The position numbers and the translations under genes are program-made. From positions 185,727 to 249,726 of the forward strand of contig CAYUSN010000001.1 in assembly GCA_964447415.1 (NCBI GenBank): a stretch of 64,000 nucleotides of DNA, written 5' to 3'. This stretch comes from an uncultured Candidatus Saccharibacteria bacterium. GTDB lineage: Bacteria > Patescibacteriota > Minisyncoccia > Phycocordibacterales > EsbW-18. This document shows, one piece after another, positions 2,219 to 63,044 of this stretch; position 1 is the stretch's first letter; each line of letters opens with the position of its first letter. The notes beneath the pieces are model-generated. The model saw only the letters and a program-made list of their open reading frames with translations. It was not told the DNA's origin and did no database searches.

Positions 2219-2321
2219 CCCAGCACTTATTTTGCTGAATATCGGAAAAAAAATTTTTCGTGCAGGTTTTTCATACTTCTCTGAATTGATACACAGAGAA
2301 AAATGCAAAATAAGTGCTGGG
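2219..2321. promoter_or_regulatory. Palindromic element A: 17-bp inverted arms (cccagcacttattttgc / gcaaaataagtgctggg) flanking ~68 nt; member of the CCAGCAC hairpin family; right arm abuts the tmRNA 5' end
   Basis: Perfect inverted repeat read directly; fills the smpB-ssrA spacer. Confidence 0.5.
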
Positions 2322-3060: not shown

Positions 3061-3158
3061 CCAGCGCAGTCCGCGTGCCGCGCCCGCCTTCGTACGAAGG
3101 CGGGCGCGTTTCATTTTCTCTTTATTCTTTTCGGTGCTCCCTATATACTGTACGGACT

Positions 3159-5069
3159 ATGACGGATTCTCCCCGCAAAAGAGGGCCCGGACAGGGCATG
3201 CCGAAAATACCGCTTACGCCGAAGCGTTCATTTTGGACGAATGTCGGCTTCACTATTCTTCTGTTTTTACTTCTGTCGCTTCTGTACTCGGGCTTTTCAG
3301 ATATACAAAAGTCGGAAGAAATTCCCGTGTCACGCCTTGCCGCTGATGTGGTTGCGGGTACGGTGACGACAATTACCGTGCGCGGAGACAAGCTTGAAGT
3401 TACGTATACCGATGAGACGGTAAAACTTTCACAGAAAGAAACAGACGTATCGCTTGCCGAGACGCTTGCTTCATACGGTGTGACGCAGGAACAACTCGCA
3501 AGCACGTCTATTGCGATACAAAGCGAATCAGGGTTCTGGTATTGGATGCTTAATCTCGCGCCGATTATTATTCCGGTGCTGTTTATTGTATTTCTCATCT
3601 GGATGCTCTCACGGCAGGTAAAAGGTGCGGGTATGCAGGCGCTGAACTTCGGACAGTCGCGTGCGCGGTTCTTTGACCCGAAGGATAAACAAAAAGTGAC
3701 GTTCAAAGACGTTGCGGGTGTCAAAGAAGCGAAAGAAGAACTGCTTGAAATCGTGGACTTCCTCAAAAATCCGAAAAAGTTTCTCAAAATCGGCGCGCAG
3801 ATTCCGAAGGGCGTGCTGTTGATGGGTTCTCCGGGGACGGGGAAGACCCTGTTGGCGCGCGCGGTTGCAGGCGAAGCCAATGTGCCGTTTTTCTCCATCT
3901 CAGGTTCTGAGTTTGTGGAGATGTTTGTCGGTGTGGGCGCGTCGCGCGTGCGCGACTTGTTTCAGACGGTCAAAAAGGCCGCGCCCGCCATCATTTTTAT
4001 AGACGAGATTGACGCGGTCGGTCGCGTGCGCGGTGCGGGACTGGGAGGCGGCAACGACGAGCGCGAACAGACACTCAACCAGATTCTTGTGGAGATGGAC
4101 GGGTTTGAACCGCATCAGGAAGTCATTGTGATGGCGGCGACAAACCGTCCCGATGTGCTGGACCCGGCGCTGTTGCGCCCCGGACGCTTTGACCGGCGCG
4201 TACGCTTGGATTTGCCCGACCGCGCGGACCGCGAGGCGATTCTTGCCGTGCACTCAAAAGAAAAACCGCTCGCCGAAGACGTGAATCTCAAAGTGGTTGC
4301 GGAGCGTACGCCCGGATTCTCAGGGGCTGACCTGCAGTCGCTTACCAATGAAGCGGCGATTTTGGCGGCACGCGAAAACCGCAGTAAGGTGTCGCAATTT
4401 GATTTGGTGCGCTCCATTGAAAAAGTAATGCTCGGACCGGAACGCAGAAGCCACATTCTCTCTGAACGCGAGAAAAAAATCACTGCATACCACGAAGCGG
4501 GACATGCACTCGTTGCATCCGTCCTGCCGAATGCCGACCCGATACATAAAGTATCCATCATCGCGCGCGGCCACGCCGGCGGCTACACGCTCTCGTTGCC
4601 GCTTGAAGAGAAGCGTCTGCTTTCCAAAAAAGAATTCGTCGATCGTTTGGCGATGATTCTTGGCGGATACGCTGCTGAGCAGGAAATTTTCGGCGATGTG
4701 ACAACGGGTCCGTCCAATGATTTACAGGTAGCAAGTGCTCTTGCGCGCGACATGGTTGCTCGCTACGGCATGTCGAAAAAAGTCGGGCCGGTGGCGTTCC
4801 ATGATGACGAAGTACACGCGGCTGCAGGCGGTATGATTGTAGAGGGCAAGGAGTACTCGGAGAAAGTCGCGGCTCTTATTGACGAAGAGGTCCGTGAGTT
4901 TGTGGACACCGCGCTTTCGGAGGCGACGGCAGTTCTCAAAAAACACCGTCCGGCGCTCGAGGCGATTGTGGCGCACTTGCTTGAGAAAGAAACCATCGAG
5001 CAAATCGAGTTTGAGGCGCTTTTGCGCGCGCACGGGATTGCCGTGAAAAGCGTGGAGAAGAAGGTATAA
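3159..5069 (+). CDS. ftsH: ATP-dependent zinc metalloprotease FtsH
   Basis: N-terminal TM helices, AAA+ Walker A GSPGTGKT, Walker [12 protein letters not shown], zinc motif HEAGHAL; start moved to MTDSPRKRG (ORF-track start overlaps upstream terminator hairpin). Confidence 0.9.
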
Positions 5070-7347: not shown

Positions 7348-7352
7348 ATATG

Positions 7353-7424
7353 TGGGCATGCTAGGATTCGAACCTAGAACCGGCCGTGTATAAGACGGCT
7401 GCTCTACCGTTGAGCTACATGCCC
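7353..7424 (-). tRNA. tRNA with anticodon UAU (AUA-decoding isoleucine-type tRNA)
   Basis: Manual fold of reverse strand: acceptor GGGCATG/CATGCCC, D-arm GCTC-AACGGTA-GAGC, anticodon stem GCCGT/ACGGC with loop CTTATAC (U33-UAU-A37), T-arm CTAGG-TTCGAAT-CCTAG, discriminator A; CCA not encoded. Confidence 0.65.
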
Positions 7425-7480
7425 GAAGATACCTACGTCATTGTGATATCGCCGGCACTTAATTGCAACTTGAGAGGCGC

Positions 7481-7508
7481 AAAAAATCCCCAGGTATCGG
7501 GGATTTTT
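7481..7508. terminator. Bidirectional intrinsic terminator (aaaaatccccaggtatcggggatttttt)
   Basis: Stem flanked by A-run and T-run. Confidence 0.6.
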
Positions 7509-7511
7509 TGT

Positions 7512-7634
7512 GCTACATTTTCTTGTTCTTCTGAATCCAAACCCAGAGTGCGTAGCCGACAAGCGCGAGGTCGACGAACACAAGTAGCTGCATGAGCCAC
7601 ATGAACCCGTAGCTGCCCCCAAAGTATCCCATCA
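7512..7634 (-). CDS. Putative 40-aa hydrophobic micro-protein (MMGYFGGSYGFMWLMQLLVFVDLALVGYALWVWIQKNKKM)
   Basis: Below ORF-track cutoff; found by manual translation of minus strand between terminator and hairpin B; single TM-like helix; no SD. Confidence 0.25.
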
Positions 7635-7661
7635 TAGGTAGTGTGTGTTAAAAGGGGTAAA

Positions 7662-7684
7662 CCCAGCACTTTAACAAAGTGCTG
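7662..7684. promoter_or_regulatory. Palindromic element B (ccagcacttt-aac-aaagtgctgg) upstream of the ECF sigma factor gene
   Basis: Perfect 10-bp inverted repeat with CCAGCAC core, 64 nt before the sigma-factor ATG. Confidence 0.45.
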
Positions 7685-7747
7685 GACACGCGACCTTTCT
7701 GTTCCCATTCTAGCGTAACCTTTGTACAATAGGAACACATTCTCCAT

Positions 7748-9667: not shown

Positions 9668-9709
9668 AAAAACCCTCTCTAGTTCGCGCGAATTAGAGAG
9701 GGTTTTTAT
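9668..9709. terminator. Bidirectional intrinsic terminator (aaaccctctctagttcgcgcgaattagagagggttttt)
   Basis: 11-bp stem between convergent genes with flanking A/T runs. Confidence 0.65.
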
Positions 9710-9781: not shown

Positions 9782-10270
9782 TTAGCAGGGAAGCGGCGCC
9801 GTGGATGCGGCCGCTCGCTCCTTCGCGCGGCGAATCTGACGCAGCGCGTCCACGTCTTCCTGTACGACGGAATTGCAGAGCCGTCGCACGAAAGACCGCA
9901 CGTCGTCCTCCGGGATGTCGCTGCCGGCGACGTCGCCGACGAAGAGGTCCTCGAGCTCCCCGATGGAAAGCTTGTCGCGGGTACGGTGGCGCACGCGCGC
10001 ACAGAGCACCTGCAGCGAGATCTCCTCCTGCGACTTCTGTGGGATGCGGGACAGCATCCGCGTACGCTGGTCTTCTTCGGGTTCGAGAATTGCCGCGAGG
10101 AACTGCTCGACGGGCTCGGTAACGAGCCCCATCCGCGCCATGAGGCGCCAGATGGCTTCCCGAAACGCGGGCGACGTGCGGGTGAGCCCGCAGCGGTCAC
10201 ACTGGTCGACCTTCCCGGCAACGATTGCCGAGAAAATCTGCAACGCCATGGCGCCGTCCTTTTTGGTCAT
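9782..10270 (-). CDS. Hypothetical protein (GC-rich ORFan, 162 aa)
   Basis: Start moved to MTKKDG with AAAGGAGGGG SD; high GC3 codon usage; downstream of recG on same strand. Confidence 0.4.
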   Translation of the reverse strand: MTKKDGAMALQIFSAIVAGKVDQCDRCGLTRTSPAFREAIWRLMARMGLVTEPVEQFLAAILEPEEDQRTRMLSRIPQKSQEEISLQVLCARVRHRTRDKLSIGELEDLFVGDVAGSDIPEDDVRSFVRRLCNSVVQEDVDALRQIRRAKERAAASTAPLPC

Positions 10271-10371
10271 CGTATCCCCTCCTTTGAATGCGGCAGTTAC
10301 CATAACTGTCGCGGTGCATCTATTCGGTACGGTACGCTGTTGGTTAAAAAAAGTCAAAGTTTTCCCAATCT

Positions 10372-13007: not shown

Positions 13008-13236
13008 CGCCTCGCTCCGCCGTTTTCCCGCCGGGGGCCTTGTGCCGCCGGCGGTGCTTTATATATTGGCGTTTTTGCTGTCCACCGACTTTCCCCAACG
13101 GCGCAGAAACGGCTTGACAGAGGCGTTTTCACGAATATAATGAGTGCTCCTACAGTGATCAGCAACCCCGTTCCGGTTTTGCTGGGACGGGGTAAAAAAT
13201 TGCGGTAGGGGATGCACGTTGATAATCACATAATTC

Positions 13237-13331
13237 ATCCAGCACTCAATTTGGCACTGTTGTCATGTCGAACGAATGACGCACAACAGTGAATCTACAA
13301 CGAAGAGATAGTGCCAAATTGAGTGCTGGAT
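13237..13331. promoter_or_regulatory. Palindromic element C: 21-bp perfect inverted arms (atccagcactcaatttggcac / gtgccaaattgagtgctggat) flanking 53 nt, upstream of the 16S rRNA gene
   Basis: Read directly; followed by three further strong hairpins (13345-13460) in the rRNA leader region. Confidence 0.5.
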
Positions 13332-13543
13332 AAAAAAGTCGTGCGATGGCCACCGCTGTCGCACGCACAATCAGAGTTAACCGGATAGCAGCCGGAGCAC
13401 TCTGATTAACCCGTCTATGAGAGACAGACCGTAGTACAGTCTGTCTCATCCAAGACAAAATTAAGAACGGAGAAAAAAGCTAATCACATTTTTTCTTTTG
13501 TTCTGCTCAACTAAGTGAAGCATTTATGTTTCACTTTATATGT

Positions 13544-15196
<1,653 letters not shown>

Positions 15197-15365
15197 AGTC
15201 AAATGACAATCGGTATTTGTCTCTCAAGGACAATACTCTAGGCGGTCGATATCGTGCACTGCAATTGAGTGCATGATGGATGCGGCACAGCATCCTTAAA
15301 ACCGTGCCGGGCATCCGGGAAAGACCGGAAAAATGAGCAGAACAAAAGAAAGAACGTGATATAAA

Positions 15366-16772: not shown

Positions 16773-17024
16773 ATGAAGGCCACGGTGTCGAACTATGGTC
16801 TGATGTACAGTCCGACGGTGATGGGTGGGCTCGTCTCACTCGAACCGTTCGAGGTCATCGCCAAGGCGGTCGGACCGTGCAACTGCGGGTTCGAGGAACC
16901 CGACAGTCCGCGGATGGGGCACGCATCAAGCTGTCCAACGCAGTACGCGATGATCGAGGTGCAGGGGCACACGATCGTGGTGTACCTGCCCAACATCGAA
17001 ATCATGGAGGAGGTGACCGCATGA
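16773..17024 (+). CDS. Hypothetical small protein (83 aa, Cys/His-containing), GC-rich ORFan
   Basis: Strong AAAAGGAGG SD; stop overlaps downstream ATG (ATGA). Confidence 0.4.
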   Translation: MKATVSNYGLMYSPTVMGGLVSLEPFEVIAKAVGPCNCGFEEPDSPRMGHASSCPTQYAMIEVQGHTIVVYLPNIEIMEEVTA

Positions 17025-20279: not shown

Positions 20280-20657
20280 ATGACCGTCAAAAAGCAGGCT
20301 CCCGAAGAGACCCCCGCCACGCCCCAGACGGCGCCCGACGACAACAAGCGTTTCGAGATGTGCGGGTGCAACGGCAAGCCGCACGGGTACTACGTGCGGA
20401 GCAACGGGGAGAAGTTCCCGGCCGTCATCGTGTCGGTGCGCGCCGGCAAGTTCGTCCTCGACGGACCGGTCGAGGAGGGCGGCGGGCTCGTCAAGACCGA
20501 GGACAAGGCGCGCGCAGTCGCCCAGATGGAGGCCTCCGGTCTCCCGGCAGAGCGCGAGGACGACATCGAGGTGGCCGCGCAGAGCGCCGTCCATGCGCTG
20601 GCCTCCGAGGTGTTCCTGCTGGAGATCCTGGCGCAGGCGATGACCCGCAACAAGTAG
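20280..20657 (+). CDS. Hypothetical protein (GC-rich ORFan, 125 aa)
   Basis: GAGGGAGG SD; very high GC3 (aag/gag/gac/ggc codons); followed by intrinsic terminator ~20686-20720. Confidence 0.4.
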   Translation: MTVKKQAPEETPATPQTAPDDNKRFEMCGCNGKPHGYYVRSNGEKFPAVIVSVRAGKFVLDGPVEEGGGLVKTEDKARAVAQMEASGLPAEREDDIEVAAQSAVHALASEVFLLEILAQAMTRNK

Positions 20658-20755
20658 AACGCGCCGATAGACGTCCATCTGTCACCAAGCCCCCACGCGA
20701 AAGCGCGGGGGCTTCAATATTATATGGAAACAAAAAACACACGGAGTTGTCGTGA

Positions 20756-20802
20756 TATAACCCGCACTTACTTTTGGTACAAAAGTAAGTGCGGGTTATA
20801 GT
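20756..20802 (+). promoter_or_regulatory. Palindromic element F (tataacccgcacttactttt-ggtac-aaaagtaagtgcgggttata) embedded in sigma70-like promoter: -35 TTGGTA, 17-nt spacer = 3' arm, -10 TATAGT
   Basis: Perfect 20-bp inverted repeat; -10 ends ~9 nt before the murC ATG, implying a (near-)leaderless transcript. Confidence 0.5.
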
Positions 20803-20810
20803 TGGTATGT

Positions 20811-22097
20811 ATGGGAACACTCGACTTTGCACGGCACATTCACTTCATCGGCATCGGCGGAATCGGTGTCTCCGCGCTTGCCCGTTTGATGAAACACCAC
20901 GGGAAACATGTTTCCGGTTCCGACCGAGACATGACGCGGTTGACGCGTGAGCTTGAACGAGAAGGTATCCGTGTGCGTCCCGGACATGACGAACACCACG
21001 TGCCGCTGTTTGCTGATTTTATTGTGCATTCACCGGCGATTCCGTCTGATAATCCTGAACTGATGAAGGCGCGCGAACTCGGAATTCCCTCAATGTCGTA
21101 TCCCGAAGCGCTCGGCGCGGTGACACGTGACACGTTTACGGTTGCTGTATCGGGCACGCATGGAAAGACCACAACGACAGCAATGCTCGCTGAAGTTCTC
21201 AAGGAAAGTGTCAATCCGACGGTTATCGTGGGTTCACTGCTTTCCGGAGGCCGCAGTAACTTTGTCGCGGGTCATCCGAAGCGTTTTGTGGTGGAGGCGT
21301 GCGAATACAAACGCTCATTCCTCAACTTGCATCCTGACATTCTCGTCATCACCAATATTGATGAGGATCACCTCGACTACTACCGCGACTTGGAGGACAT
21401 CAAGAGCGCCTTTCGTGAGATGGTGCAAAAGGTTCCCGTATACGGCGCCGTTGTGTGTGACCTCTCCGACCCGAATATTGCAGATGTTGTGTCTGAGAGC
21501 CGCGCACCCATCATCAACTACATGGCGTTTTATGACGATGCGCGCAAACTCTCGGTATTTGGCGAGCACAATTTGCGCAACGCGGCCGCGGCGCACGCGG
21601 TTGCCGACTATTTCAATATTCCGGAGACAGAGGTAAACCGTGCACTCTTGAAATTTACCGGCACATGGCGCCGGAGTGAGTACAAAGGACGTACAACGCG
21701 TGGTGCAGACGTGTATGACGACTACGCGCATCACCCGAGAGAGATCCGCACGACACTCTCAGGTTTCAGAAAGCGATATCCCGATAAAAACCTGGTCGTC
21801 GCGTTTCAACCGCACCTCTATTCGCGCACAAAGACGCTCTTTGATGATTTTATCGACAGTTTTCACAACGCCGACCGGCTACTGCTCGCCCCGATTTACG
21901 CGGCACGCGAAGCGTATGACCCGACCATCTCGCACCACCAACTCGGTGATGCGATACGAGAGTATGGCGGCCGCGTTGAATCGTACGAAACACTGCACGC
22001 GCTGTCACACGAGCTCGCGCGCGGACTCACCCAGGATGACATTGTCATCACGATGGGTGCGGGTGATATCTACACAGTCGGCGAGAAACTTTTGTAA
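20811..22097 (+). CDS. murC: UDP-N-acetylmuramate--L-alanine ligase MurC
   Basis: IHFIGIGGIGVSALA N-terminal Rossmann motif, GTHGKTTTTAML P-loop, Mur ligase middle/C domains; ORF-track start at 20802 is TTG, first in-frame ATG (MGTLDF) used. Confidence 0.85.
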   Translation: MGTLDFARHIHFIGIGGIGVSALARLMKHHGKHVSGSDRDMTRLTRELEREGIRVRPGHDEHHVPLFADFIVHSPAIPSDNPELMKARELGIPSMSYPEALGAVTRDTFTVAVSGTHGKTTTTAMLAEVLKESVNPTVIVGSLLSGGRSNFVAGHPKRFVVEACEYKRSFLNLHPDILVITNIDEDHLDYYRDLEDIKSAFREMVQKVPVYGAVVCDLSDPNIADVVSESRAPIINYMAFYDDARKLSVFGEHNLRNAAAAHAVADYFNIPETEVNRALLKFTGTWRRSEYKGRTTRGADVYDDYAHHPREIRTTLSGFRKRYPDKNLVVAFQPHLYSRTKTLFDDFIDSFHNADRLLLAPIYAAREAYDPTISHHQLGDAIREYGGRVESYETLHALSHELARGLTQDDIVITMGAGDIYTVGEKLL

Positions 22098-22187
22098 ACG
22101 TATTGCAGGAAATACTTGACACCTCCTATTTTTTGGAGTATTTTCCTGACAGAGCTTGGTCTTCAAACAACGAAACGGAGGCAACAA

Positions 22188-22871
22188 ATGTTCGAGCATC
22201 TCCCGTCGTTCTACAGCGATTTGCATTGGAAGCGGACCGGTTTCTTCTCGAAGCTCCTGCTTTTCATCATGGCGGTTCTGAAGTTCGTGCCGGAGGCATT
22301 GCTCTTCGGCGCCATCTCGGCTCTCGTGTCGTTCTCGAGCACGACGTACAGCATCGCGGGGACGATGGACGCGAAGTTCAAGGAAGTGGGCGAGAGTGGT
22401 GGTATCCCGGCTTTCTCGGTGTGGTTCTGGGGTCCACTCATGATTGTGTGCGGGATTCTCGCATTCGTCTCTGCACTTGTTGTAGTGATTTTCAAGTCAT
22501 TCCTGACCGCGAATCAGTGCGACGTCGTATCGCGGATTCTGCAGAAGAGTCGGTTGCGCGCCCTTGCGACACTTGTTGTCCAGGAAGGCATCTGGCGAAA
22601 CCCACAGGAACACACGGAAGCGTTTCTACGCATCCGTGCCATCGTGATGAATTCCTACAAGGAAGCGGCGCTTCCTGCGCTTTATGAAATCGAAGCCAAG
22701 GCCAAGGATTTTTCCGACAGGAAGCAGATGGTTCGCGTCTACAAGCAGCTCGCCGAAGCGTACACCTCATACGGCGATGAGAGGAGCGCCCGTAGGACTC
22801 TCGGGTATGCGCGTGCTCTCGGTGAGGAGTTGGATCTCGATGATCAGTTGCTCAAGACATACGTCGTCTAA
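22188..22871 (+). CDS. Hypothetical membrane protein (2-3 TM) with C-terminal helical/TPR-like soluble region
   Basis: ACGGAGG SD before MFEHLPS; hydrophobic helices; high GC3; followed by terminator hairpin ~22885-22915. Confidence 0.45.
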   Translation: MFEHLPSFYSDLHWKRTGFFSKLLLFIMAVLKFVPEALLFGAISALVSFSSTTYSIAGTMDAKFKEVGESGGIPAFSVWFWGPLMIVCGILAFVSALVVVIFKSFLTANQCDVVSRILQKSRLRALATLVVQEGIWRNPQEHTEAFLRIRAIVMNSYKEAALPALYEIEAKAKDFSDRKQMVRVYKQLAEAYTSYGDERSARRTLGYARALGEELDLDDQLLKTYVV

Positions 22872-22938
22872 CCTCCGTTCGTTTCGCGCCCCGCGAGGAT
22901 TCCTCGCGGGGCGTTTCGGTTTCATGTATAGTGCCCGT

Positions 22939-23634
22939 ATGACAAGTGAAATACTCGGAACGCTTTACGTGGTGGGAACGCCGATAGGCAACTTGGAAGA
23001 CGTGACGCTCCGCGCGTTGCGCATTTTGAAAGAGGCGGACGTTATTTTCTGCGAAGACACGCGCGTAACGAAGCGCCTGCTGGATAAGTACGACATTCAC
23101 ACACGCACGACATCTTTGAATGCGCGCACCGAACACGCAAAAATCGGCTCAGTGATGGGAGCACTAACTGAGGGGAAGAAGGTTGCGCTCGTCTCTGATG
23201 CAGGAACGCCGGGCGTATCGGACCCGGGCGGGCTCGTGGTGTCAGTCGTTCGGGAGAAAATGCCGGATGTTCGCATTGAAGTTATTCCCGGTCCTTCGGC
23301 GCTCACTGCAGCGCTCTCCATTGCAAGCGTGCCCGTTGCGGATTTTGTGTTCTTAGGGTTTTTGCCGCACAAAAAAGGACGCCAAACACTCTTCAAAGAG
23401 ATTGCGGAGAGTAAGCGCGCGATGATTTTCTATGAATCACCGCACCGCATTATGAAGACACTCGCCTCGCTTAGAGATGTGTTAGAAGACGACAGAATCG
23501 TCGGTATCGCACGCGAACTAACGAAAATTTACGAAGAAATCGTCCGCGGCAGCGCCACAGAGGTGCTTTCATACTTCGAAACGAACAAGGAAAAACAGAA
23601 GGGGGAGTTTGTGGTGATTGTCTCCGGAAAATAA
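22939..23634 (+). CDS. rsmI: 16S rRNA (cytidine1402-2'-O)-methyltransferase RsmI (tetrapyrrole methylase fold)
   Basis: GTLYVVGTPIGNLEDVTLRALRIL...DVIFCEDTR...ESPHR motifs; start at MTSEILG (alternative MYSARM at 22924). Confidence 0.8.
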   Translation: MTSEILGTLYVVGTPIGNLEDVTLRALRILKEADVIFCEDTRVTKRLLDKYDIHTRTTSLNARTEHAKIGSVMGALTEGKKVALVSDAGTPGVSDPGGLVVSVVREKMPDVRIEVIPGPSALTAALSIASVPVADFVFLGFLPHKKGRQTLFKEIAESKRAMIFYESPHRIMKTLASLRDVLEDDRIVGIARELTKIYEEIVRGSATEVLSYFETNKEKQKGEFVVIVSGK

Positions 23635-23702
23635 AGAGAGGCAGGCTTTTTTGCCCTGTTTTGCACTACCATGCCCGCATAATTCGTGCGATACTACTGC
23701 GC

Positions 23703-39303: not shown

Positions 39304-39431
39304 TCCAGCACCTAGTTTGCCGACACCTTTTGTTGTGTTTGTTTCTGCTTAAAAACAAACTACCAGAAACGGTGTCTCTGGAACTTTTGCCAGTTACATA
39401 GTGTAGAAACCTCGGCAAACTAAGTGCTGGA
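39304..39431. promoter_or_regulatory. Palindromic element D: 20-bp arms (tccagcacctagtttgccga / tcggcaaactaagtgctgga, 1 mismatch) flanking ~88 nt; ends 22 nt before next ATG
   Basis: Read directly; GTGCTGG recurs once more at ~39446 just before the ATG. Confidence 0.5.
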
Positions 39432-39453
39432 TGAAATGCTATGATGTGCTGGT

Positions 39454-40263
39454 ATGAAAGAAATTTCAGGGGATAGGCCGCTCTCTCGGGTTCAAAAACT
39501 GCGCTATTTGGCTGTTAACTTCGTACGGAATCTGTGTGGCATACGTTTTCCCGGAAAAACTGTTTTTCGGTACTTCACCGTTGGTTCCAAGGCCCCCGAA
39601 AGTCCTGCGCGGGAATACCTTGATGCGTTCATGCGAGAGATGATGCCGTCTGTTCTTCCAACCGGCACAATTTCAGTGTGTGACATCGGATGCGGAACCG
39701 CGTACATGCGCTCAATTCTTTCTGGTGCGGGATATGCGGGAGAATATGTCGGGATTGATATTGTTCGTGAGCCGAAACTCGATGAGAAGTCTGTCCCGTC
39801 ATTTTCAATGACGTTTGTGCAAAACGATATATGTACGTACCGGTCACCGCGCCGGTTTGATCTTGTGCTTTCAAACACATCACTCGAACATATCCCCGAT
39901 GATTTTGCCGCTGTACAGAAGGCTTATGAGTTGTGCGCGGAAAACGGTGTAGAGGTGCATATTGTGCCGAGTCACTGGGCGCTGCCGCTGTATTTGTGGC
40001 ACGGGTACCGGCAATATACGCCGGCGCGTCTGAGGCGGATGTTTTCAGGGACACCACACACCATATATCGGCTCGGCGGTTTTGTGTCATGGTGTGTACA
40101 TTTCTTTTGTATTACCGTACCGGAACGGATATTCGGGGTATCTTCGTTCCGAAGGGGGGCGCTTTACCCAAAAGTAAAGAGGTGGGCAAACAAAGCAGAT
40201 CGTTTTTTGCCATTTTGGTCAGTACTATATGCTGTCGTCGTGTTTCATGGAAATCGCACCTAA
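39454..40263 (+). CDS. Class I SAM-dependent methyltransferase
   Basis: VCDIGCGTAYM motif I. Confidence 0.7.
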   Translation: MKEISGDRPLSRVQKLRYLAVNFVRNLCGIRFPGKTVFRYFTVGSKAPESPAREYLDAFMREMMPSVLPTGTISVCDIGCGTAYMRSILSGAGYAGEYVGIDIVREPKLDEKSVPSFSMTFVQNDICTYRSPRRFDLVLSNTSLEHIPDDFAAVQKAYELCAENGVEVHIVPSHWALPLYLWHGYRQYTPARLRRMFSGTPHTIYRLGGFVSWCVHFFCITVPERIFGVSSFRRGALYPKVKRWANKADRFLPFWSVLYAVVVFHGNRT

Positions 40264-45983: not shown

Positions 45984-46155
45984 CCCTATTTTCGGCGGAG
46001 TCTCTACCTGTGGTATAGTGTTTTCCGTATGCATCCCGTTAGAGATTACTCACGTATGTTCGTGTCTAATATTCAAAAAATGTCGACATATTGTTCGTGT
46101 GCACACGAGGGTGTGATAACGATGGAAACGCACCGCGTTTCTTATCTCTAACGGG

Positions 46156-48411
46156 ATGAAAAAAACACTTGAACGGGGAATCCTTTTTCTTCTGTTTTTG
46201 ATTCCGTTTGTTCCGTTTGTTGTTGCGCGGTCAATGTATTTCCCGTTTATCACGGGAAAGGCGTTCGCGTTCCGTGTTTTGGTCGGTATCGCACTTGCGC
46301 TCTGGCTTGCGCTTATGGTGTATGACCGGTCGTATGTTCCGAAGAAAAGCCCGGTGTTCTGGTCGGTGCTGCTGTTTTTCGGTGTGGTGGCTCTTGCGGA
46401 TATTTTCGGGGTAAATTTTGAGCGAAGTCTGTGGAGTAATTTTGAGCGCATGGAAGGACTCGTAACGTTTCTATATCTCTGTGCGTTTTTCCTGATGAGC
46501 TCTACGGTGTTAACAAAGACAAATAAGTGGCCGGCATTTTGGAATACGTCAATTGTTGCATCCGTCGGACTCGCATTCTTCGCACTTTTTCAGGTGATGG
46601 GATTTATCGGGATTTCTCAGGGCGGTGCGCGTGTGGATGCAACGCTTGGTAACTCCATCTATCTGGCGGTGTACATGCTCTTTCATATCTTCCTGACGCT
46701 CTGGTTGTTGTATGAAAAGCGCACATCACGTTCGCTCTCGATTTTTTACGCCGTGGCGGTGGTGCTGCAGACAGCGGCGTTGTACTACACCGGAACCCGC
46801 GGCGCGATGCTCGGACTTCTCGGGGGCCTGGGACTCTCAGCACTTCTCGTTGTGTGGCGTGGAAAAGAACACCCGCGGTTGAGAAAAATATCTCTTGGCG
46901 CGATGGTCGCTATTGTACTCGTGGTCGGTTTGTTTGCTTCCATCAAAAATACGCAGTTTGTGCAGGGAAGCGAAATGCTACGGCGTTTTACGAACATTTC
47001 ATTTACTGATGGAACAGTACAATCGCGCCTTGTGTTGTGGAGCGGTGTGGCGCTTCCCGGTTTTTACGAGCGGCCGATTCTCGGATGGGGGCAGGATAAC
47101 TTTATCGTGGTGTTCGGCAAACATTATGATGCGCGCATGTACAAACAGGAACCGTGGTTTGACCGTGCTCACAACGTGTTCTTCGACTGGCTCATTTCCG
47201 CCGGTATTCTCGGACTGCTGTCGTATCTCTCGCTGTTCGGAGTTGCACTTTTTGTGCTTTGGAAAAAATCAGCACATCTCTCTGTTCCTGAACGAAGCTT
47301 AGGTACGGGACTGCTTGCCGGTTACTTTGTGCACAACATTTTTGTGTTCGATAACCTTATCAGCTACATTTTTTTCCTTCTGTTTCTCGGATTTGTCGCA
47401 TCCGCATATGCACGGGAAGAAGGTGGTGCGGAACACAAGGAGACAAAAACAAGGGGTGCAGAGAGCCTTATCTCTGACCCGACACTTCGCAGAACGGCAG
47501 CTATCGGAACTTCTGTTATTGCGCTCGTTGCAATGTATGCAACTACCGTTCCGCACATTCAAGCGTCACAAAACATCATCAAAAGCATCACAGGACTGCA
47601 GGCGGGTGATTTTACGGGACCGCTTGAGCGTTTTGAAGATGCAATAGACGATCCGGTGGCGGACGAAGAGGCGCGGTTTCAGCTAAGCCGCGTTGCCTTT
47701 ACCGTCGCTGCGGCAACGAACCCAGCCGTGACGGAAGAGATAAAACAACAATACCTCCAAAAAACCTTTGAAGAACTCAAAAAAAGCGTCGCGGAAGACC
47801 CGACAAGTACCCGCCCGAAATATTTCCTTGCAACGTTTCACGCGCGCACGGGTAATTTTCCGGAAGCCATCCGCTTGTTCGGGGAACTACTTTCGGTGAA
47901 CCCTGACCGTCAGATATTTTTGAGCGAATACGGTCTTCTTCTTGAGCTGGTCGGTGATACACAGAAGTCAGAAGAAGTGCTGAAACACTTTCTTGAGATT
48001 TCTCCGGAAAGCGATGAGGCGGCAACACGGTACTCCGCGGTATTGTTTGCACATGGAAAAACAGCCGAGGCAAACGGCGTTCTCACGGAGTATACGGGGG
48101 AGATTCTCGGCGATCGCCCGATAGCACTCTCTGCATACCCGCGTCCTGCAAAATTTGAAGATGCGTTGAAAATCACAAGCTTTGAAGTCATGCGCCTCCA
48201 GCTTCGACGCGAGAATGTCGGGTTCGGCGAATACCTGGTGCGTATTCGTGACCTGGCAAACGGTGGAAATAAGACAGAGGCTTTGATTTTGACGGACGAT
48301 GCGGCTGCGTTCTATCCGGAATATACAGATAAAACCGATGCGTTAAAAACAGCGATTCGTGCAGGTAAAGAGATTGCAATTGAAGATCCGTCTTCCGCTC
48401 CGGCAAACTAA
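46156..48411 (+). CDS. O-antigen ligase/polymerase-like (Wzy_C) membrane domain fused to C-terminal TPR repeats
   Basis: N-terminal ~450 aa polytopic membrane domain with the Wzy_C-type large loop; C-terminal TPR-like helical repeats. Confidence 0.7.
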   Translation: MKKTLERGILFLLFLIPFVPFVVARSMYFPFITGKAFAFRVLVGIALALWLALMVYDRSYVPKKSPVFWSVLLFFGVVALADIFGVNFERSLWSNFERMEGLVTFLYLCAFFLMSSTVLTKTNKWPAFWNTSIVASVGLAFFALFQVMGFIGISQGGARVDATLGNSIYLAVYMLFHIFLTLWLLYEKRTSRSLSIFYAVAVVLQTAALYYTGTRGAMLGLLGGLGLSALLVVWRGKEHPRLRKISLGAMVAIVLVVGLFASIKNTQFVQGSEMLRRFTNISFTDGTVQSRLVLWSGVALPGFYERPILGWGQDNFIVVFGKHYDARMYKQEPWFDRAHNVFFDWLISAGILGLLSYLSLFGVALFVLWKKSAHLSVPERSLGTGLLAGYFVHNIFVFDNLISYIFFLLFLGFVASAYAREEGGAEHKETKTRGAESLISDPTLRRTAAIGTSVIALVAMYATTVPHIQASQNIIKSITGLQAGDFTGPLERFEDAIDDPVADEEARFQLSRVAFTVAAATNPAVTEEIKQQYLQKTFEELKKSVAEDPTSTRPKYFLATFHARTGNFPEAIRLFGELLSVNPDRQIFLSEYGLLLELVGDTQKSEEVLKHFLEISPESDEAATRYSAVLFAHGKTAEANGVLTEYTGEILGDRPIALSAYPRPAKFEDALKITSFEVMRLQLRRENVGFGEYLVRIRDLANGGNKTEALILTDDAAAFYPEYTDKTDALKTAIRAGKEIAIEDPSSAPAN

Positions 48412-56192: not shown

Positions 56193-56391
56193 TACACGGG
56201 TGTTAGCACGTGGGGTCTGACCCAACACTATACTATTGACACATCACATAAAAAGGTGTATTATATGCATGAAAGTTCTTTGAAAGTTCAGTTGCAAATT
56301 TGACCGTGGTTTTGAGCGCCTTTCAGGCCTTCAAAACCACGGTCAACGAAGACCGATGGTTACTCCGGGCAACAAAGCCCAAGGAGGTAAC

Positions 56392-57006
56392 ATGAGTTTC
56401 TCATTTCTGCTTTTCCTGTTTCTGATCCTGTTGTTGGTGGGAGTGGTCGGGACGACTTTCCTCATTTATTGTGGGGGGTCCAGCGAGCAATCCAAACAGC
56501 AGGATGAGACCTTCAAGGAGTTCACGGTGTCCAATGCCGCCACAACCAAGGAGGACTTCTTCGTCGCGTTCCCCTCGTTGAGAAGGTATCGGCACAAACC
56601 AGAATACGACAACCTAGAATTTTATCTCTGCGATTTATCGAAAGTGAGTCCCTTTATCAGTTTTAATGGAATTTCTCCCAGAGATGCTAAGGGGTTGGTT
56701 GAGCAGAAGGGATTCAGGAACGCAACACCAGAAGAATTCGTCTACTATGTCAAGAAACAAGCCCTTCTTGGGGAGAAGGGGGAGAGCTTCGGTTCTAGCG
56801 TGGTTGCGTTGGGGAAGTATGCCAATCGCACTACGGACTACCACGACACGGGGATTCTCATCTACAGCTGCTTCTATCCAGGAAGATGCTTTATCCAGAA
56901 CTGGGGCTGTAGCATGAATTTCATCCTTTACGGAGGTTTTTCCGTAGACAACACCTTTTTTCTTGGTGTGCGGGAAAAGAAGTCTAAGGAGGAATCATGT
57001 TCCTGA
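56392..57006 (+). CDS. Membrane-anchored hypothetical protein (GC-rich ORFan)
   Basis: AAGGAGG SD; N-terminal TM FLLFLFLILLLVGVVGTTFLIY; start at M13 of ORF 56356..57006. Confidence 0.4.
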   Translation: MSFSFLLFLFLILLLVGVVGTTFLIYCGGSSEQSKQQDETFKEFTVSNAATTKEDFFVAFPSLRRYRHKPEYDNLEFYLCDLSKVSPFISFNGISPRDAKGLVEQKGFRNATPEEFVYYVKKQALLGEKGESFGSSVVALGKYANRTTDYHDTGILIYSCFYPGRCFIQNWGCSMNFILYGGFSVDNTFFLGVREKKSKEESCS

Positions 57007-57563
57007 TCAAGGACGTTCCCGTCGGTCGCCTCAACGCGCTGGTCAAGAAGATCGGCGGGTTGCAGGTGATGGATGGCATTCTCGACGGCACGCTGAAGCT
57101 CACCGTCGAAAAGATCGTCGAGCCCACACCAGCCGACCTCGCTGTTTTCTTCACTACTCGGCCTGGCCTCTTGGTCACCGACGGGTTCTGGCAGCAGATT
57201 CTTGCTCTGGCGCTTGCGATGCCCGAGACGGCACCGGCCTCAGTCGGAGAGCCGTACGACCTTCGGAAGGACATGTACGATACCGAGATTCGTCAGAAAC
57301 TCGGTGAGAACCACATCTTCGAGAATGCCCGCGCGTTTTGTCGCTACCTCCAGAGGGCTCTCTCCGCGCAGTTGGGAGGTACCGAGGGGGACCTGCGCAC
57401 CTTTGGCCACGAGAACATCTTCTATGTTCGTGGCGGGGACGGGGCTGTCTTCGTGGTCTCCGTCAAGTGGAATGCCAATGGCCGAAATTGGTCCATCAGC
57501 GCCGATCATCTGCTCGACGCTGACCGGTGGTACCACGGTACTCGGGCTTTCCCTCGCAACTGA
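56997..57563 (+). CDS. Hypothetical protein (GC-rich ORFan, 188 aa)
   Basis: AAGGAGGA SD; overlaps upstream stop; high GC3; followed by terminator (ccccgcgtggcttttattggcacgcgggggcgtttt, ~57620-57655). Confidence 0.4.
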   Translation: MFLIKDVPVGRLNALVKKIGGLQVMDGILDGTLKLTVEKIVEPTPADLAVFFTTRPGLLVTDGFWQQILALALAMPETAPASVGEPYDLRKDMYDTEIRQKLGENHIFENARAFCRYLQRALSAQLGGTEGDLRTFGHENIFYVRGGDGAVFVVSVKWNANGRNWSISADHLLDADRWYHGTRAFPRN

Positions 57564-57734
57564 TCCTTGAACCCCTGGCATCTTGGCGCTTGCGTCTTGA
57601 TACCTTGGAAATCTTTCGCCCCCGCGTGGCTTTTATTGGCACGCGGGGGCGTTTTCGTATCTGACTTTAAATACAATTCAAAAATAAAGGTTCGACAGGT
57701 ATAATGATTTTGGAGGCTCATCCTTCAAAAATAT

Positions 57735-57785
57735 CATGACATCCTACATACCGACAATTGGACTTGAAATTTTCACCCAGCACTA
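57735..57785 (+). pseudogene. Relic/duplicate of the gatB N-terminus (MTSYIPTIGLEIFTQH*), divergent at synonymous sites from the functional start 90 nt downstream
   Basis: Manual translation: MTSYIPTIGLEI vs functional MTEYKPTIGLEI; nucleotide identity low despite peptide conservation; terminates inside hairpin E. Confidence 0.3.
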
Positions 57786-57804
57786 AAGCGAAGCTTAGTG
57801 CTGG
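57775..57804. promoter_or_regulatory. Palindromic element E (cccagcactaaagc-gaa-gcttagtgctggg) 23 nt upstream of gatB
   Basis: Inverted repeat with CCAGCAC core read directly. Confidence 0.45.
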
Positions 57805-57826
57805 GCAGGCGCAGTAAACCATCATC

Positions 57827-59280: not shown

Positions 59281-59562
59281 TCAGGAGAGGCCGATGACCT
59301 CGTCGGGAATTCCCGAGTTCTTGGCAAACCATGCCGTGAACTCGAAAAAGAGCTCGTCGCTCCGGTCACCCAACAGCACGGAATCGCCGTCCAGCGGCAA
59401 CTCCACCGTCTCCGGCGGCAGACCGTTCTCCCTCACGATGGCCTCGTGTACCTTCTGGGCCATCTTGTTGAACTCGGCCTCGAACTCGGGGTTGACCCCG
59501 AAGAGGCCCATGTCCAGGCGCTTCTCGTAGAGGAACCGCCGGACTTCTCTTAACGTTGTCAT
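59281..59562 (-). CDS. Hypothetical protein (93 aa, GC-rich ORFan)
   Basis: Start moved to MTTLREV within ORF 59281..59619; high GC3. Confidence 0.35.
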   Translation of the reverse strand: MTTLREVRRFLYEKRLDMGLFGVNPEFEAEFNKMAQKVHEAIVRENGLPPETVELPLDGDSVLLGDRSDELFFEFTAWFAKNSGIPDEVIGLS

Positions 59563-59641
59563 GTGTCGTCTCCTATGGAATCCTGGGCGATTATACAACA
59601 ATATACTGCAAGGTGTCAATTATTTATTTGGAGCGTGATTT

Positions 59642-59685
59642 ACCCCGCACTCAACTTTGGAGCAACGTTGAGTGCGGGGTATACT
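59642..59685 (+). promoter_or_regulatory. Palindromic element G (accccgcactcaac-tttggagcaac-gttgagtgcggggt) embedded in sigma70-like promoter: -35 TTGGAG, 17-nt spacer = 3' arm, -10 TATACT
   Basis: Read directly; ~40 nt upstream of gap ATG. Confidence 0.5.
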
Positions 59686-59724
59686 TTTTATGCAGGATTA
59701 TTCTTCTCATTTACTCTCATTTGT

Positions 59725-60744
59725 ATGGCTCGCATCGCAATTAACGGTTTCGGACGTATCGGCAGAGCGTTTTTCAAACTCGCACTTAAGTATCCCGAAC
59801 TCGACGTGGTGGTGGTAAACGATCTCGGTGATGCGCACAACCTCGCGTATCTGCTCAAGTTTGATTCGGCATACGGAAAATCAGGTCTTGATGTGGAGTC
59901 AAAAGACGGGACACTGACCGTCAACGGAAAAGATATTGCGTTTCTTCAGGAAAAAGAAGCAAAAAATCTGCCGTGGAAAAAACTCGACATTGATATCGTT
60001 ATTGAAAGTTCAGGACACTACACGAAATACGAGGATGCCAAGCAACATCTTGATGCGGGCGCAAAGCGTGTGGTGATTACCGCACCGGCAAAAGGAGACG
60101 CGGTTCCGGGAATTGAAGTGGGGACGGTATTGATGGGAATTAACGAAGAGAAGTTGAAAACATGCGATATCACTTCTAACGCATCGTGCACGACCAACGC
60201 GGCATCACCGGTGATTCAGGTGATTCATGAGGCGCTTGGTGTGGAGAAAGCGGTGCTTAACACAGTGCACGGATACACGCAGTCACAGGAACTGCAGGAT
60301 GCGCCGAATGCGCGCGGATGGCGTGAAGGACGCGCTGCGGCGGCAAACATCGTGCCGACAACCACCGGTGCGGCAATTGCGGTCACAAAAGCAATTACCG
60401 ATCTCGAAGGAAAGTTTGACGGCATCGCGGTTCGCGTACCCGTGCTGGTCGGTTCAATTGCGGACACTACAATGGTGGTCGGGCGCGATACGACGGCGGA
60501 GGAAGTAAACGATATTCTGAAAAAAGCTGCGGGCGACGACCGTTGGCAGGGGATTCTGAAAGTGTCCGACGACGAGCTTGTTTCGTCAGATATCGTCGGT
60601 GAACCGTACGGTGCGATTGTGGATGCTCAAATGACGCGTGTGGTCGGCGGCAATCTCGTGAAGGTGATGTCGTGGTATGACAACGAGGCGGGATATGCGG
60701 CGACACTGGTGCAGCACGCGCGAAAAATGTCGGCACTTTTGTAA
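59725..60744 (+). CDS. gap: Glyceraldehyde-3-phosphate dehydrogenase (type I)
   Basis: ARIAINGFGRIGR NAD-binding start, catalytic SNASCTTNA; start moved from ORF-track 59563 to MARIAING. Confidence 0.9.
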   Translation: MARIAINGFGRIGRAFFKLALKYPELDVVVVNDLGDAHNLAYLLKFDSAYGKSGLDVESKDGTLTVNGKDIAFLQEKEAKNLPWKKLDIDIVIESSGHYTKYEDAKQHLDAGAKRVVITAPAKGDAVPGIEVGTVLMGINEEKLKTCDITSNASCTTNAASPVIQVIHEALGVEKAVLNTVHGYTQSQELQDAPNARGWREGRAAAANIVPTTTGAAIAVTKAITDLEGKFDGIAVRVPVLVGSIADTTMVVGRDTTAEEVNDILKKAAGDDRWQGILKVSDDELVSSDIVGEPYGAIVDAQMTRVVGGNLVKVMSWYDNEAGYAATLVQHARKMSALL

Positions 60745-62161: not shown

Positions 62162-62180
62162 TGTTTGCTATACTCTTTGT

Positions 62181-63044
62181 ATGGCGCATCTCTCTGACGA
62201 CAAGATTAAAGAGCTTGAGTTGAAAGCAAACGAAATTCGCATCTCGCTGATCGATATGCTTGAAGATGCGGGGAGCGGACATACCGCCGGGCCGTTGGAC
62301 ATGGCCGACATTTTTACCGCATTTTATTTTCATATTCTCAAACACGACCCGAAAAATCCCGAATGGGAAGAACGTGACCGGCTCTTTCTTTCAAACGGGC
62401 ACATTACACCGGTGCGGTACTCTGCGATGGCGCACGCGGGATATTTTCCGCTCTCCGAACTGAAGACACTCCGAAAATTCGGGTCACGTTTGCAGGGACA
62501 CCCCGAGCGCGAGCGTTTGCCGGGAGTTGAGACCACTTCAGGACCGCTTGGATCGGGACTTTCACAGGCGGCGGGATATGCATACACTGCGCGCATGGAC
62601 GGAAAAAAGTGGCGCACATACTGTCTGATGTCCGACGGGGAGCTGCAGGCGGGTAATACGTGGGAGGGTGCCATGTTTGCCGGCAACAACAAACTTTCAA
62701 ATCTCACCGCGGTAATTGACCGCAACAATATTCAAATCAGCGGTACGACCGAGCACGTAATGCCGCTAGAACCGTTGGCGGATAAGTGGCGCGCATTCAA
62801 CTGGCATGTCATTGAGGTGGACGGACACAACATTATGGCGTTTTGTGACGCGGTGGATGAGGCGCGCGCGATTTCAGAGCGTCCGACGGTTATTATTGCG
62901 CACACAATCGCCGGCAAGGGAATCAAAGAGATTGAATACGACTACCGTTGGCACGGCAAACCGCCGACAAAAGAAGAGGAAAAAAAGTTTTTGAAAGAAC
63001 TGCGCACACTTAAAGGAAAAATTGAGGCATCACACAATGATTAA
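62181..63044 (+). CDS. tktA: Transketolase, N-terminal (TPP-binding) subunit
   Basis: GSGHTAGPLDMADI, RDRLFLSNGH, TPP-binding GDGE...N motifs; start moved to MAHLSDD. Confidence 0.85.
   Translation: MAHLSDDKIKELELKANEIRISLIDMLEDAGSGHTAGPLDMADIFTAFYFHILKHDPKNPEWEERDRLFLSNGHITPVRYSAMAHAGYFPLSELKTLRKFGSRLQGHPERERLPGVETTSGPLGSGLSQAAGYAYTARMDGKKWRTYCLMSDGELQAGNTWEGAMFAGNNKLSNLTAVIDRNNIQISGTTEHVMPLEPLADKWRAFNWHVIEVDGHNIMAFCDAVDEARAISERPTVIIAHTIAGKGIKEIEYDYRWHGKPPTKEEEKKFLKELRTLKGKIEASHND

Follow-up and report, generated by a model that had tools for sequence, protein, structure and literature searches.

The palindromes F and G, which occupy the promoters of murC and of the glyceraldehyde-3-phosphate dehydrogenase (GAPDH) gene gap in a 64,000-nucleotide stretch of contig CAYUSN010000001.1 (this whole stretch is called the window), are probably lineage-specific, very short palindromic insertions in the TATA of the -10 boxes of promoters that already existed. 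The probability of this reading is put at about 0.6. The evidence that carries it is a presence/absence polymorphism at four orthologous promoters, those of murC, gap, tkt and ftsH. The proteins most similar to the murC and gap products carry the name Candidatus Campbellbacteria, with identities of up to 92% and 96%, respectively; Campbellbacteria belong to the Candidate Phyla Radiation (CPR; Paceibacteria). The G+C content of the window is about 52%, and its RNA genes include a stand-alone 16S gene (1668 nt), tmRNA and tRNA-Ile(UAU). The loci of relatives used for comparison are labelled L001 (GCA_045863475.1), L002, L003, L005, L126-L130 and L206-L210. The coordinates of the features are collected in Table 1.

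The empty site of the murC promoter is found in L206. This locus carries the orthologous gene X, the hairpin that follows it, the promoter and codons 1-17 of murC, and reads CGTGATATAGTT, with no palindrome. Its context readings are ccGTGATATAGTttcc, ccGTGATATAGTTtccatatATGGGAGC and ccGTGATATAGTTtcc, and its promoter is of the extended -10 type, TGaTATAGT. The window has exactly 41 extra bases at this place, shown in parentheses in CGTGATATA(ACCCGCACTTACTTTTGGTACAAAAGTAAGTGCGGGTTATA)GTTggtatgtATGGGAAC. Upon removal of the 41 nt, 12/12 bases match at the junction and the homology is colinear on both sides. This junction was established by global alignment with the 41 nt taken out; MAFFT applied to the intact window and L206 smeared the indel. 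The inserted unit (20760-20800, for example) consists of a 37-nt palindrome, ACCCGC...GCGGGT, and a second copy of TATA. The insertion takes away the TG of the extended -10, turning TGaTATAGT into GGTTATAGT. In L001, L002, L003 and L005 murC overlaps the upstream gene (NUDIX, murI or an unknown gene) in an operon, and there is therefore no murC promoter to compare.

Relatives keep the order of gatB, the small minus-strand gene and gap, and the -10 of gap is found at the same place, as (T)GGTATA(C/A)TTT, in L127, L128, L129, L130 and L207. The palindrome is missing in the first four of these, which read TGGTATA(C/A)T. The empty sites of L127 and L130 carry the TG, in TGGTATACT. L207, which is about 77% identical to the window in DNA, has a filled site, TATA-CCCCGCATGTAACTTTGGAGCAAATCCACGCACGGGG-TATACT. 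It shares with G the ends, an identical centre AACTTTGGAGCAA, the 17-nt spacing and TATACT. However, 5-6 positions of its arms are unpaired and its fold is weak, at -8.3 kcal/mol. The comparison of G with L207 indicates that the -35, the spacing and the -10 were kept, whereas the hairpin was not.

At tkt and ftsH the window itself has the empty site. The tkt site is filled in two independent assemblies, L127 and L128, which read TATA-CCCCGTGAGAT-10 nt-ATCTCACGGGG-TATACT, whereas the window, L126 and L130 read an uninterrupted TGCTATACT. The ftsH site is filled in L210, where cTATA-CCCCGTGAGATA-40 nt-TATCTCACGGGG-TATACTgtacgaacgATG reconstitutes TATACT. The ftsH element of L210 has TTTGGAGC 18 nt before TATACT, the same 8-mer as at the centre of G. 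At all four loci the element separates the TG motif from the -10 hexamer and has TA or TATA on either side, and the empty sites have a single TATA. A TATA-flanked palindrome, TATAGGTCTTATTCG-tg-CGAATAAGACCTATA, was also observed in L129 (12358-12389). It is situated between convergent genes, showing that TATA-flanked palindromes in the clade are not limited to promoters.

F and G, two copies of a single element, can be aligned gap-free, as cgtga-T(A/T)TA-(A/C)CCCGCACT(T/C)A..TTTGG..CAA..T(A/G)AGTGCGGG(T/G)-TATA(G/C)T, and differ at four stem positions, all four of which are compensated on the opposite arm. With L207 included, 5/20 pairs change on both sides. An earlier note on this DNA had described the same architecture at gap as at murC. 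The geometry is indeed the same, but because F and G are copies of one element it does not amount to two independent observations. The note had also proposed AGTGCGGG(G/T) as a conserved extended-promoter or operator element. This sequence is the outer end of the palindromic insertion and is missing from the orthologous promoters of relatives, so that the proposal did not hold; AGTGCGGG reads instead as the terminal inverted repeat of an insertion element.

Seven palindromes of the window, A-G, share the arm consensus CC[AC]GCAC[TC]YA..TTTG[GC], and 14 of the 28 occurrences of CC[AC]GCAC[CT] in the window fall inside them. The members have terminal inverted repeats, no coding capacity and several copies per genome. 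The 5' flanks are TATA or TTTA for F and G and varied for A-E. A target-site duplication is seen as TATA at F, at the L207 gap site, at tkt in L127 and at ftsH in L210, and as TA at G; none is seen for A, B, D and E. B, the member of the A-E subfamily that was covered by the orthologous-site comparison, is identical in L208 and L209 (about 97% relatives) and is missing in L210. The 3' arm of D stops shortly before TGCTATGAT (39437-39445), the extended -10 of the gene at 39454, which lies 8 nt before its ATG, and E is situated in the gatB leader, at the right end of a 1.6-kb stretch that is missing from L127. The weaker -10-like hexamers that had been reported to follow C and D are not the likely promoters: C is situated 3' of a promoter that scores 12/12 (13114-13141), and it is TGCTATGAT that follows D. 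Some members of the A-E subfamily are in transcribed leaders (C and E), and these copies may have a role at the RNA level.

Table 1. Positions of the palindromes, promoter elements and genes discussed in the text.
Feature	Position	Strand	Description
Palindrome F	20756-20800		arms 20756-20776 and 20780-20800, 21 nt, 100% complementary; 3-nt loop
-35-like TTGGTA in F	20774-20779	+	spans inner end of 5' arm and loop
Spacer in F, caaaagtaagtgcgggt	20780-20796		17 nt, wholly 3' arm
murC -10 TATAGT	20797-20802	+	bases 1-4 form the end of the 3' arm and are the downstream copy of TATA
Putative orphaned upstream half of old extended -10	20753-20759	+	TG 20753-20754, A, first TATA copy 20756-20759
murC coding sequence	20811-22097	+	conserved in-frame ATG; Pfam Mur ligase domains; no Shine-Dalgarno
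Gene X	20280-20657	+	125 aa, no Pfam match; ortholog of a 120-aa gene of L206 (+ strand)
G+C-rich hairpin after gene X	20687-20714	+	likely its terminator; kept in L206
Palindrome G	59641-59681		arms 59641-59659 and 59663-59681, 19 nt, 95% complementary (one mismatch); 3-nt loop
-35-like TTGGAG in G	59657-59662	+	centre of G
gap -10 TATACT	59680-59685	+	
gap (GAPDH) coding sequence	59725-60744	+	
Divergent 12/12 promoter TTGACA-18-TATAAT	59590-59619	-	for small minus-strand gene 59281-59562
tkt empty site	62166-62183	+	TGcTATACT, 6 nt, ATG (leaderless geometry)
ftsH empty site	3141-3161	+	cTATATACT, 9 nt, ATG; window reads cTATATACTgtacggactATG
Palindrome A	2220-2320		arms CCAGCACTTATTTTGC, 69-nt interior; between smpB and tmRNA 5' end (2321)
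Palindrome B	7663-7685		CCAGCACTTT-aac-AAAGTGCTGG; upstream of extracytoplasmic function (ECF) sigma gene
Palindrome C	13237-13331		22-nt arms, about 50-nt interior; in 16S leader, downstream of promoter 13114-13141
Palindrome D	39305-39430		19-nt arms, 88-nt interior; 5' arm directly after upstream stop codon
Palindrome E	57777-57804		CCAGCACTAA-8 nt-TTAGTGCTGG; 22 nt upstream of gatB ATG (57827)

The palindromes and the pairs of hexamers at murC and gap were confirmed exactly as the earlier note had located them. Folded as single-stranded DNA, F has an energy of -22.7 kcal/mol (z = -10.7) and G, which has TA on both sides, one of -19.7 kcal/mol (z = -9.3). The spacer in G (59663-59679) is, like that in F, 17 nt long and lies wholly within the 3' arm. 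The description of both promoters as near-consensus is correct for the -10 hexamers, TATAGT and TATACT, which each match TATAAT at 5/6 positions, with A as the second and T as the sixth base, but not for the -35 hexamers, which match TTGACA at 4/6 (F) and 3/6 (G) positions, both at 17 bp from the -10. Promoters were scored by the number of matches out of 12 to the consensus hexamers TTGACA and TATAAT. The F promoter scores 9/12 and is the sole promoter-like site listed by the consensus scan in 20600-20900, where 0.2 would be expected by chance, whereas G, with a total of 8/12, is below the threshold and is not listed by the scan. With the insertion in place there is no extended -10 TG at -15/-14, the hexamer being preceded by GGT in F and by GGG in G. 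The assignment of sigma70-type promoters to both sites is nevertheless largely supported, as the -10 of gap is kept in five relatives and that of murC in L206. Both sites are very probably real promoters.

The murC -10 had been placed about 9 nt before the first ATG. The first ATG, at 20807, is out of frame, and the in-frame ATG, at 20811, is 8 nt away; a TTG at 20802, which opens the mechanically called open reading frame (ORF), overlaps the -10. The N-terminus of murC was compared with L001, L002 and L206. In L206 the same TATAGT is followed after 8 nt by the same ATG, with no Shine-Dalgarno sequence and no GGAGG. The suggested leaderless or near-leaderless murC mRNA is plausible on these grounds, with a predicted leader of at most 4 nt. 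The same geometry is enriched in the window: a good -10 hexamer, 6-9 nt and an ATG occur at about eight other genes (smpB, ftsH, rsmI, tkt, recG and three more). When good -10 hexamers were binned by their distance from all ATGs of the window that open at least 150 codons, 12 were found in the four bins of 6-9 nt, compared to about 0.5 per bin elsewhere, an enrichment of about sixfold. The 8-nt distance of murC falls inside this peak. The lengths of the resulting ORFs are equal to those of the relatives' gene calls (ftsH 636 aa, rsmI 231 aa and tkt 287 aa).

The mRNA of gap is predicted to have a C/U-rich 5' untranslated region of about 33 nt with no Shine-Dalgarno sequence. The gap leaders of the window (59686-59724) and of L127, L129, L130 and L207 are C/U-rich, G-poor and lacking a Shine-Dalgarno sequence; AGGAGG is present at other genes of the window, for example at the gene at 16773.

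A leaderless promoter also occurs at L126 (about 2460-2560), L129 (about 10250-10320) and L206 (470-590), where it is followed by a remnant of the first 6-17 codons of tkt or murC. Next come a palindrome, CCCCG(G/A)TA..TACGGGG, and, 15-25 nt further on, a new start codon. The new start overlaps the stop of the remnant ORF (GTGA, TGAATG), and the duplicated N-terminus is recoded (CTC TCC versus TTA AGC). This layout looks as if the gene had been replaced while its leaderless start was retained, the new start being used for re-initiation.

In the window, the block from murC to rsmI (20831-23635) is 92.9% identical to L001, whereas its flanks are 70-77% identical. The step in identity at 20831 suggests that the 5' end of murC is a recombination junction, with F situated 30 nt upstream, and the block points to recent recombination or transfer between Campbellbacteria lineages.

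The insertion would have proceeded as follows. The ancestral promoters of the clade would have been extended -10 promoters, TGnTATAnT, lacking a good -35 and often situated 6-9 nt from the start codon, a distance at which the mRNA would be leaderless. An element of about 37 bp, being essentially two fused terminal inverted repeats, would have landed in the TATA of the -10. The insertion would duplicate TA or TATA, and the downstream copy would rebuild the -10 as TATAGT or TATACT, while the TG motif and the first TATA would be pushed about 40 bp upstream. The left flank common to F and G, CGTGAT.TA, can thus be read as the orphaned TG and first TA(TA) left from the earlier promoter. TTGG(TA/AG), carried in the centre of the element, would lie exactly 17 bp from its right end, so that any short-loop copy in a -10 box would offer TTGGnn at the correct spacing. 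As a result, a hybrid -35/-10 promoter would take the place of the extended -10 promoter, with the TTGG hexamer probably acting as a -35 and adding to the promoter strength. The predicted start of transcription lies 5-9 nt beyond the -10, giving a leaderless murC mRNA and the leader of about 33 nt for gap, and the hairpin would be situated upstream of the start, outside both transcripts. The comparison further suggests that the elements are, or were, mobile.

The inverted repeats, the TA or TATA flanks, the absence of coding capacity, the multiple copies and the presence/absence polymorphism together correspond to the behaviour of miniature transposable elements with inverted repeats (MITEs). 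A number of observations weigh against the insertion reading, however. The -35 hexamers are weak, and two of the six TATA-flanked elements have no recognizable -35 (at tkt in L127 and at about 1170-1233 in L210). The four compensated differences between F and G are not predicted by the simple decay of transposon copies, and hint that the hairpin is preserved, by selection or by some mechanism. The interiors of A, C and D are mutually unrelated, as are those of the three CCCCGTGAGATA copies, the repeats being all that these have in common. Unrelated interiors, compensatory stem differences and the lack of a transposase among the window ORFs scanned make a poor fit to a classical MITE. The CCAGCACT subfamily (A-E) has no TA flanks and is not found at -10 boxes. 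Furthermore, TA and TATA are self-complementary, so that a duplication can be distinguished from an extension of the palindrome by 2-4 bp solely via the empty sites. No transposase or other mobilizing gene was found among the ORFs of the 64-kb window that were tested, and the ORFs scanned gave no match to a Y1 transposase domain. Finally, the pattern CCCGCACTYA-N9-21-TRAGTGCGGG gave 70 matches over many phyla in species-representative genomes, none of them in Campbellbacteria; this number is about that expected for generic G+C-based hairpins.

A stricter arm pattern gave four matches in metagenome contigs, lacking TATA flanks and any detectable relation to Campbellbacteria. Among these matches is a hairpin, CCCGCACTTACTTT-tgaaag-AAAGTAAGTGCGGG, repeated on two contigs of one sample, metagenome Ga0114919: L202 (486-519) and L203 (804-837). 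Its arms agree with F over 14 nt, and CGGAGATTGTC stands before each copy. A loose half-site pattern was tried on viral contigs and gave at least 120 matches, which is at chance level and uninformative. In the regions of F and G no Rfam family scored at or above its gathering threshold, and the matches below it, including those of permissive scans, were to generic hairpins.

The closest described analogue is the Correia repeat-enclosed elements (CREE, also NEMIS) of Neisseria. These are small, non-coding elements with inverted repeats beginning with TATA, which insert at TA with duplication, lie in most cases a short distance upstream of genes, vary in presence between related genomes, can fold into hairpins and create sigma70-type promoters at their ends (PMC2649163, PMC10969869). 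The F/G-type elements have in common with them the TATA ends, the insertion at TA with duplication, the presence/absence polymorphism, the promoters and the hairpins. The Correia elements, however, are 70-157 bp long and have a conserved core, whereas F and G are about 37 bp long and have no core, and their longer relatives have unrelated interiors. F and G would have inserted into an existing -10 and supply a -35, whereas the end of a Correia element itself builds the -10. The host also differs, being Neisseria in one case and a CPR bacterium in the other.

Insertion sequences such as IS1, IS2 and IS10 make hybrid promoters by means of an outward-facing -35 in their terminal repeat. The likeness to F and G lies in the combination of an element-borne -35 with a resident -10 at about 17 bp. 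Those sequences, however, are complete insertion sequences with a transposase, and they usually activate silent genes and do not insert inside a -10 box.

A third likeness is to the repetitive extragenic palindromes (REPs) mobilized by REP-associated tyrosine transposases (RAYTs) and to the palindromes of IS200/IS605. These are extragenic palindromes of about 35 bp with a conserved stem base, a variable apex and compensatory stem variation, and insertion beside a fixed tetranucleotide would also leave TATA on both sides of the element. Unlike REPs, F and G lack a 5' tetranucleotide of the GT[AG]G type and are not clustered downstream of genes. No gene for a RAYT-type Y1 transposase was seen in the window. 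It may be speculated that a single-strand transposase of the REP/RAYT or IS200/IS605 kind was involved, as this would explain the conserved stem base, the variable apex and the fixed border tetranucleotide.

A more far-reaching version of the insertion is a tentative and rather unlikely one, namely that a superfamily of Campbellbacteria elements homes to the TATA of -10 boxes, bringing TTGGAG with it, and that the hairpin is kept for mobility or as a supercoiling-sensitive switch. The open complex would expose the -10 TATA as single-stranded DNA to a transposase that recognizes hairpins. Promoters would be rewired from the extended -10 to the -35/-10 type, and compensatory changes in the arms would maintain the hairpin.

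Among the other explanations, the one that survives best, at a low probability, is that F and G function as RNA hairpins in transcripts that come from upstream, being terminators or insulators, processing sites for RNase III or another enzyme, or 5' stabilizers. The transcribed leaders in which C and E are situated (C after the promoter at 13114-13141, which scores 12/12, and E after a TATAAT at about 57701) agree with this, as do the location of A, which abuts the tmRNA 5' end, that of D, which begins directly after a stop codon, the stems kept intact by compensatory changes and the T-rich stretch TATACTTTTTAT after G. The related palindromes of L126, L129 and L206 are in the transcribed region, between the remnant ORF and the gene start, and are diverging yet palindromic. 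Correia elements are substrates of RNase III (PMC2649163). However, F and G are upstream of the predicted starts of their own genes. Gene X has a conserved hairpin of its own and, as this is conserved in L206, F is not needed as the terminator of gene X. The gene upstream of G is divergent and has its own 12/12 promoter, so that no read-through on the + strand is expected. Neither F nor G was listed by the intrinsic terminator scan, close relatives differ by gains and losses of the elements, and the stem has decayed in L207. A role of F or G as terminator of the upstream gene was rejected on the grounds of gene X's own hairpin and of the terminator scan.

Slightly less probable still is an operator, on which a dimeric or tetrameric factor would bind symmetric CC[AC]GCACT half-sites and co-regulate murC, gap and the other genes with palindromes. 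An overlap of the -35 and the spacer is typical for repressor operators, and the core GCACT/AGTGC with TTTG/CAAA is common to seven sites upstream of genes. This core resembles the GCACTC/GAGTGC of the CIRCE consensus. Mobile elements can also carry protein-binding sites, such as the sites for integration host factor (IHF) in Correia elements (PMC10969869). The distance between half-sites, however, ranges from 3 to about 90 nt over the family, unlike that of one rigid dimer. The differences between F and G change on both arms together, which is demanded by pairing but not by protein contact. The element is missing from the same promoters in relatives, and L207 keeps the promoter but loses the symmetric half-sites. 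Moreover, murC, gap, the 16S leader, tmRNA, gatB and the ECF sigma gene have no evident common regulation. The operator CIRCE of HrcA, TTAGCACTC-N9-GAGTGCTAA, was considered specifically. It has in common with G and C the GCACTC/GAGTGC core, and like the present palindromes it is palindromic and overlaps promoters, but the spacing is N17 in F and G and 5 to about 90 nt in other copies, compared to N9, and the outer bases differ. CIRCE was rejected on the 17-nt spacing of F and G and on the identity of the genes, murC and gap not being chaperone genes.

The earlier note had raised the idea that hairpin formation modulates promoter activity, and a promoter regulated by a cruciform was reportedly described in E. 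coli by Horwitz and Loeb in 1988. The least probable reading here is such a switch, in which negative supercoiling would extrude the palindrome, putting the -35 in the loop and the spacer in the stem and shutting the promoter: the perfect 21-bp arms with a 3-nt loop favor extrusion, the apex holds the -35 and the 3' arm forms the spacer, and G has remained palindromic in the window lineage while the L207 copy diverged at about the genome-wide rate, but the promoter elements of L207 persist as a conserved unit with no palindrome, and the tkt copy of L127 and the ftsH copy of L210, with interiors of 10-40 nt, would be poor extruders. The switch is compatible with an insertion origin and with everything seen in this analysis.

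The papers searched contained nothing on MITEs, promoters or leaderless mRNAs in CPR bacteria, whose promoters, transcript 5' ends and mobile repeats are almost unstudied. The present comparison provides a usable promoter model for Campbellbacteria, the extended -10 TGnTATAnT, frequently leaderless, which was obtained from sequence comparison alone. It also provides a natural experiment, in that the same promoters exist with and without a palindromic insertion of 37-64 bp. Should the insertions indeed target the -10 and carry a -35 with them, very small genomes would offer a compact case of core promoters being remodelled by mobile DNA. On the practical side, metagenome assemblies can break or become confused at gene starts where a perfect palindrome exceeds the assembler k-mer in length.

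Several further features were observed along the window. The 16S gene (13537-15204) is unlinked from 23S and is 1668 nt long, compared to 1533 nt for the model; the 16S gene of L001 has a further insertion of 744 nt relative to the window (L001 371-1115). The 5' flank of the gene (13482-13511) is complementary to its 3' flank and would form a processing stem with it. The 12/12 sigma70 promoter at 13114-13141, TTGACA-16-TATAAT, lies about 400 nt upstream of 16S, and the leader contains two more hairpins (13369-13407 and 13421-13447) besides palindrome C.

The tRNA-Ile with the anticodon UAU (7352-7424, - strand), which is uncommon in bacteria, is situated beside a bidirectional terminator (7477-7513). 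A hydrophobic ORF of 40 aa (about 7513-7635, - strand) is kept in the relatives of about 97% identity (L208 1691-1813, L209 924-1046). It is divergent from the ECF sigma gene, with palindrome B in between. The sequence AGCGTAACCTTTGTACAATAG, downstream of B, is also conserved in L210 and probably serves as the promoter of the sigma gene.

The 1.6-kb stretch between obg and gatB (56195-57824) contains two ORFs with no Pfam match and has palindrome I3 (56300-56346) as its left boundary and E as its right one. It is missing in L127 and L130, where obg and gatB are adjacent.

Three genomes share another conserved palindrome, TCTCTAATTCGCGCGAATTAGAGA, which they carry at non-orthologous places (window 9668-9707, L005 3387-3418 and L129 12398-12421). 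The window copy is situated between convergent genes and has runs of A and T on its flanks. A separate inverted-repeat family consists of CCCGTTAGAGA, an unrelated interior of about 95 nt and TCTCTAACGGG, and occurs in the window (46035-46155), L001 (17934-18050) and L127 (686-803). It has no Rfam match. A GGAAC direct repeat flanks the L127 copy, and in two of the three cases the element ends exactly at an ATG, which in the window is that of the gene at 46156, encoding a Wzy_C/TPR protein.

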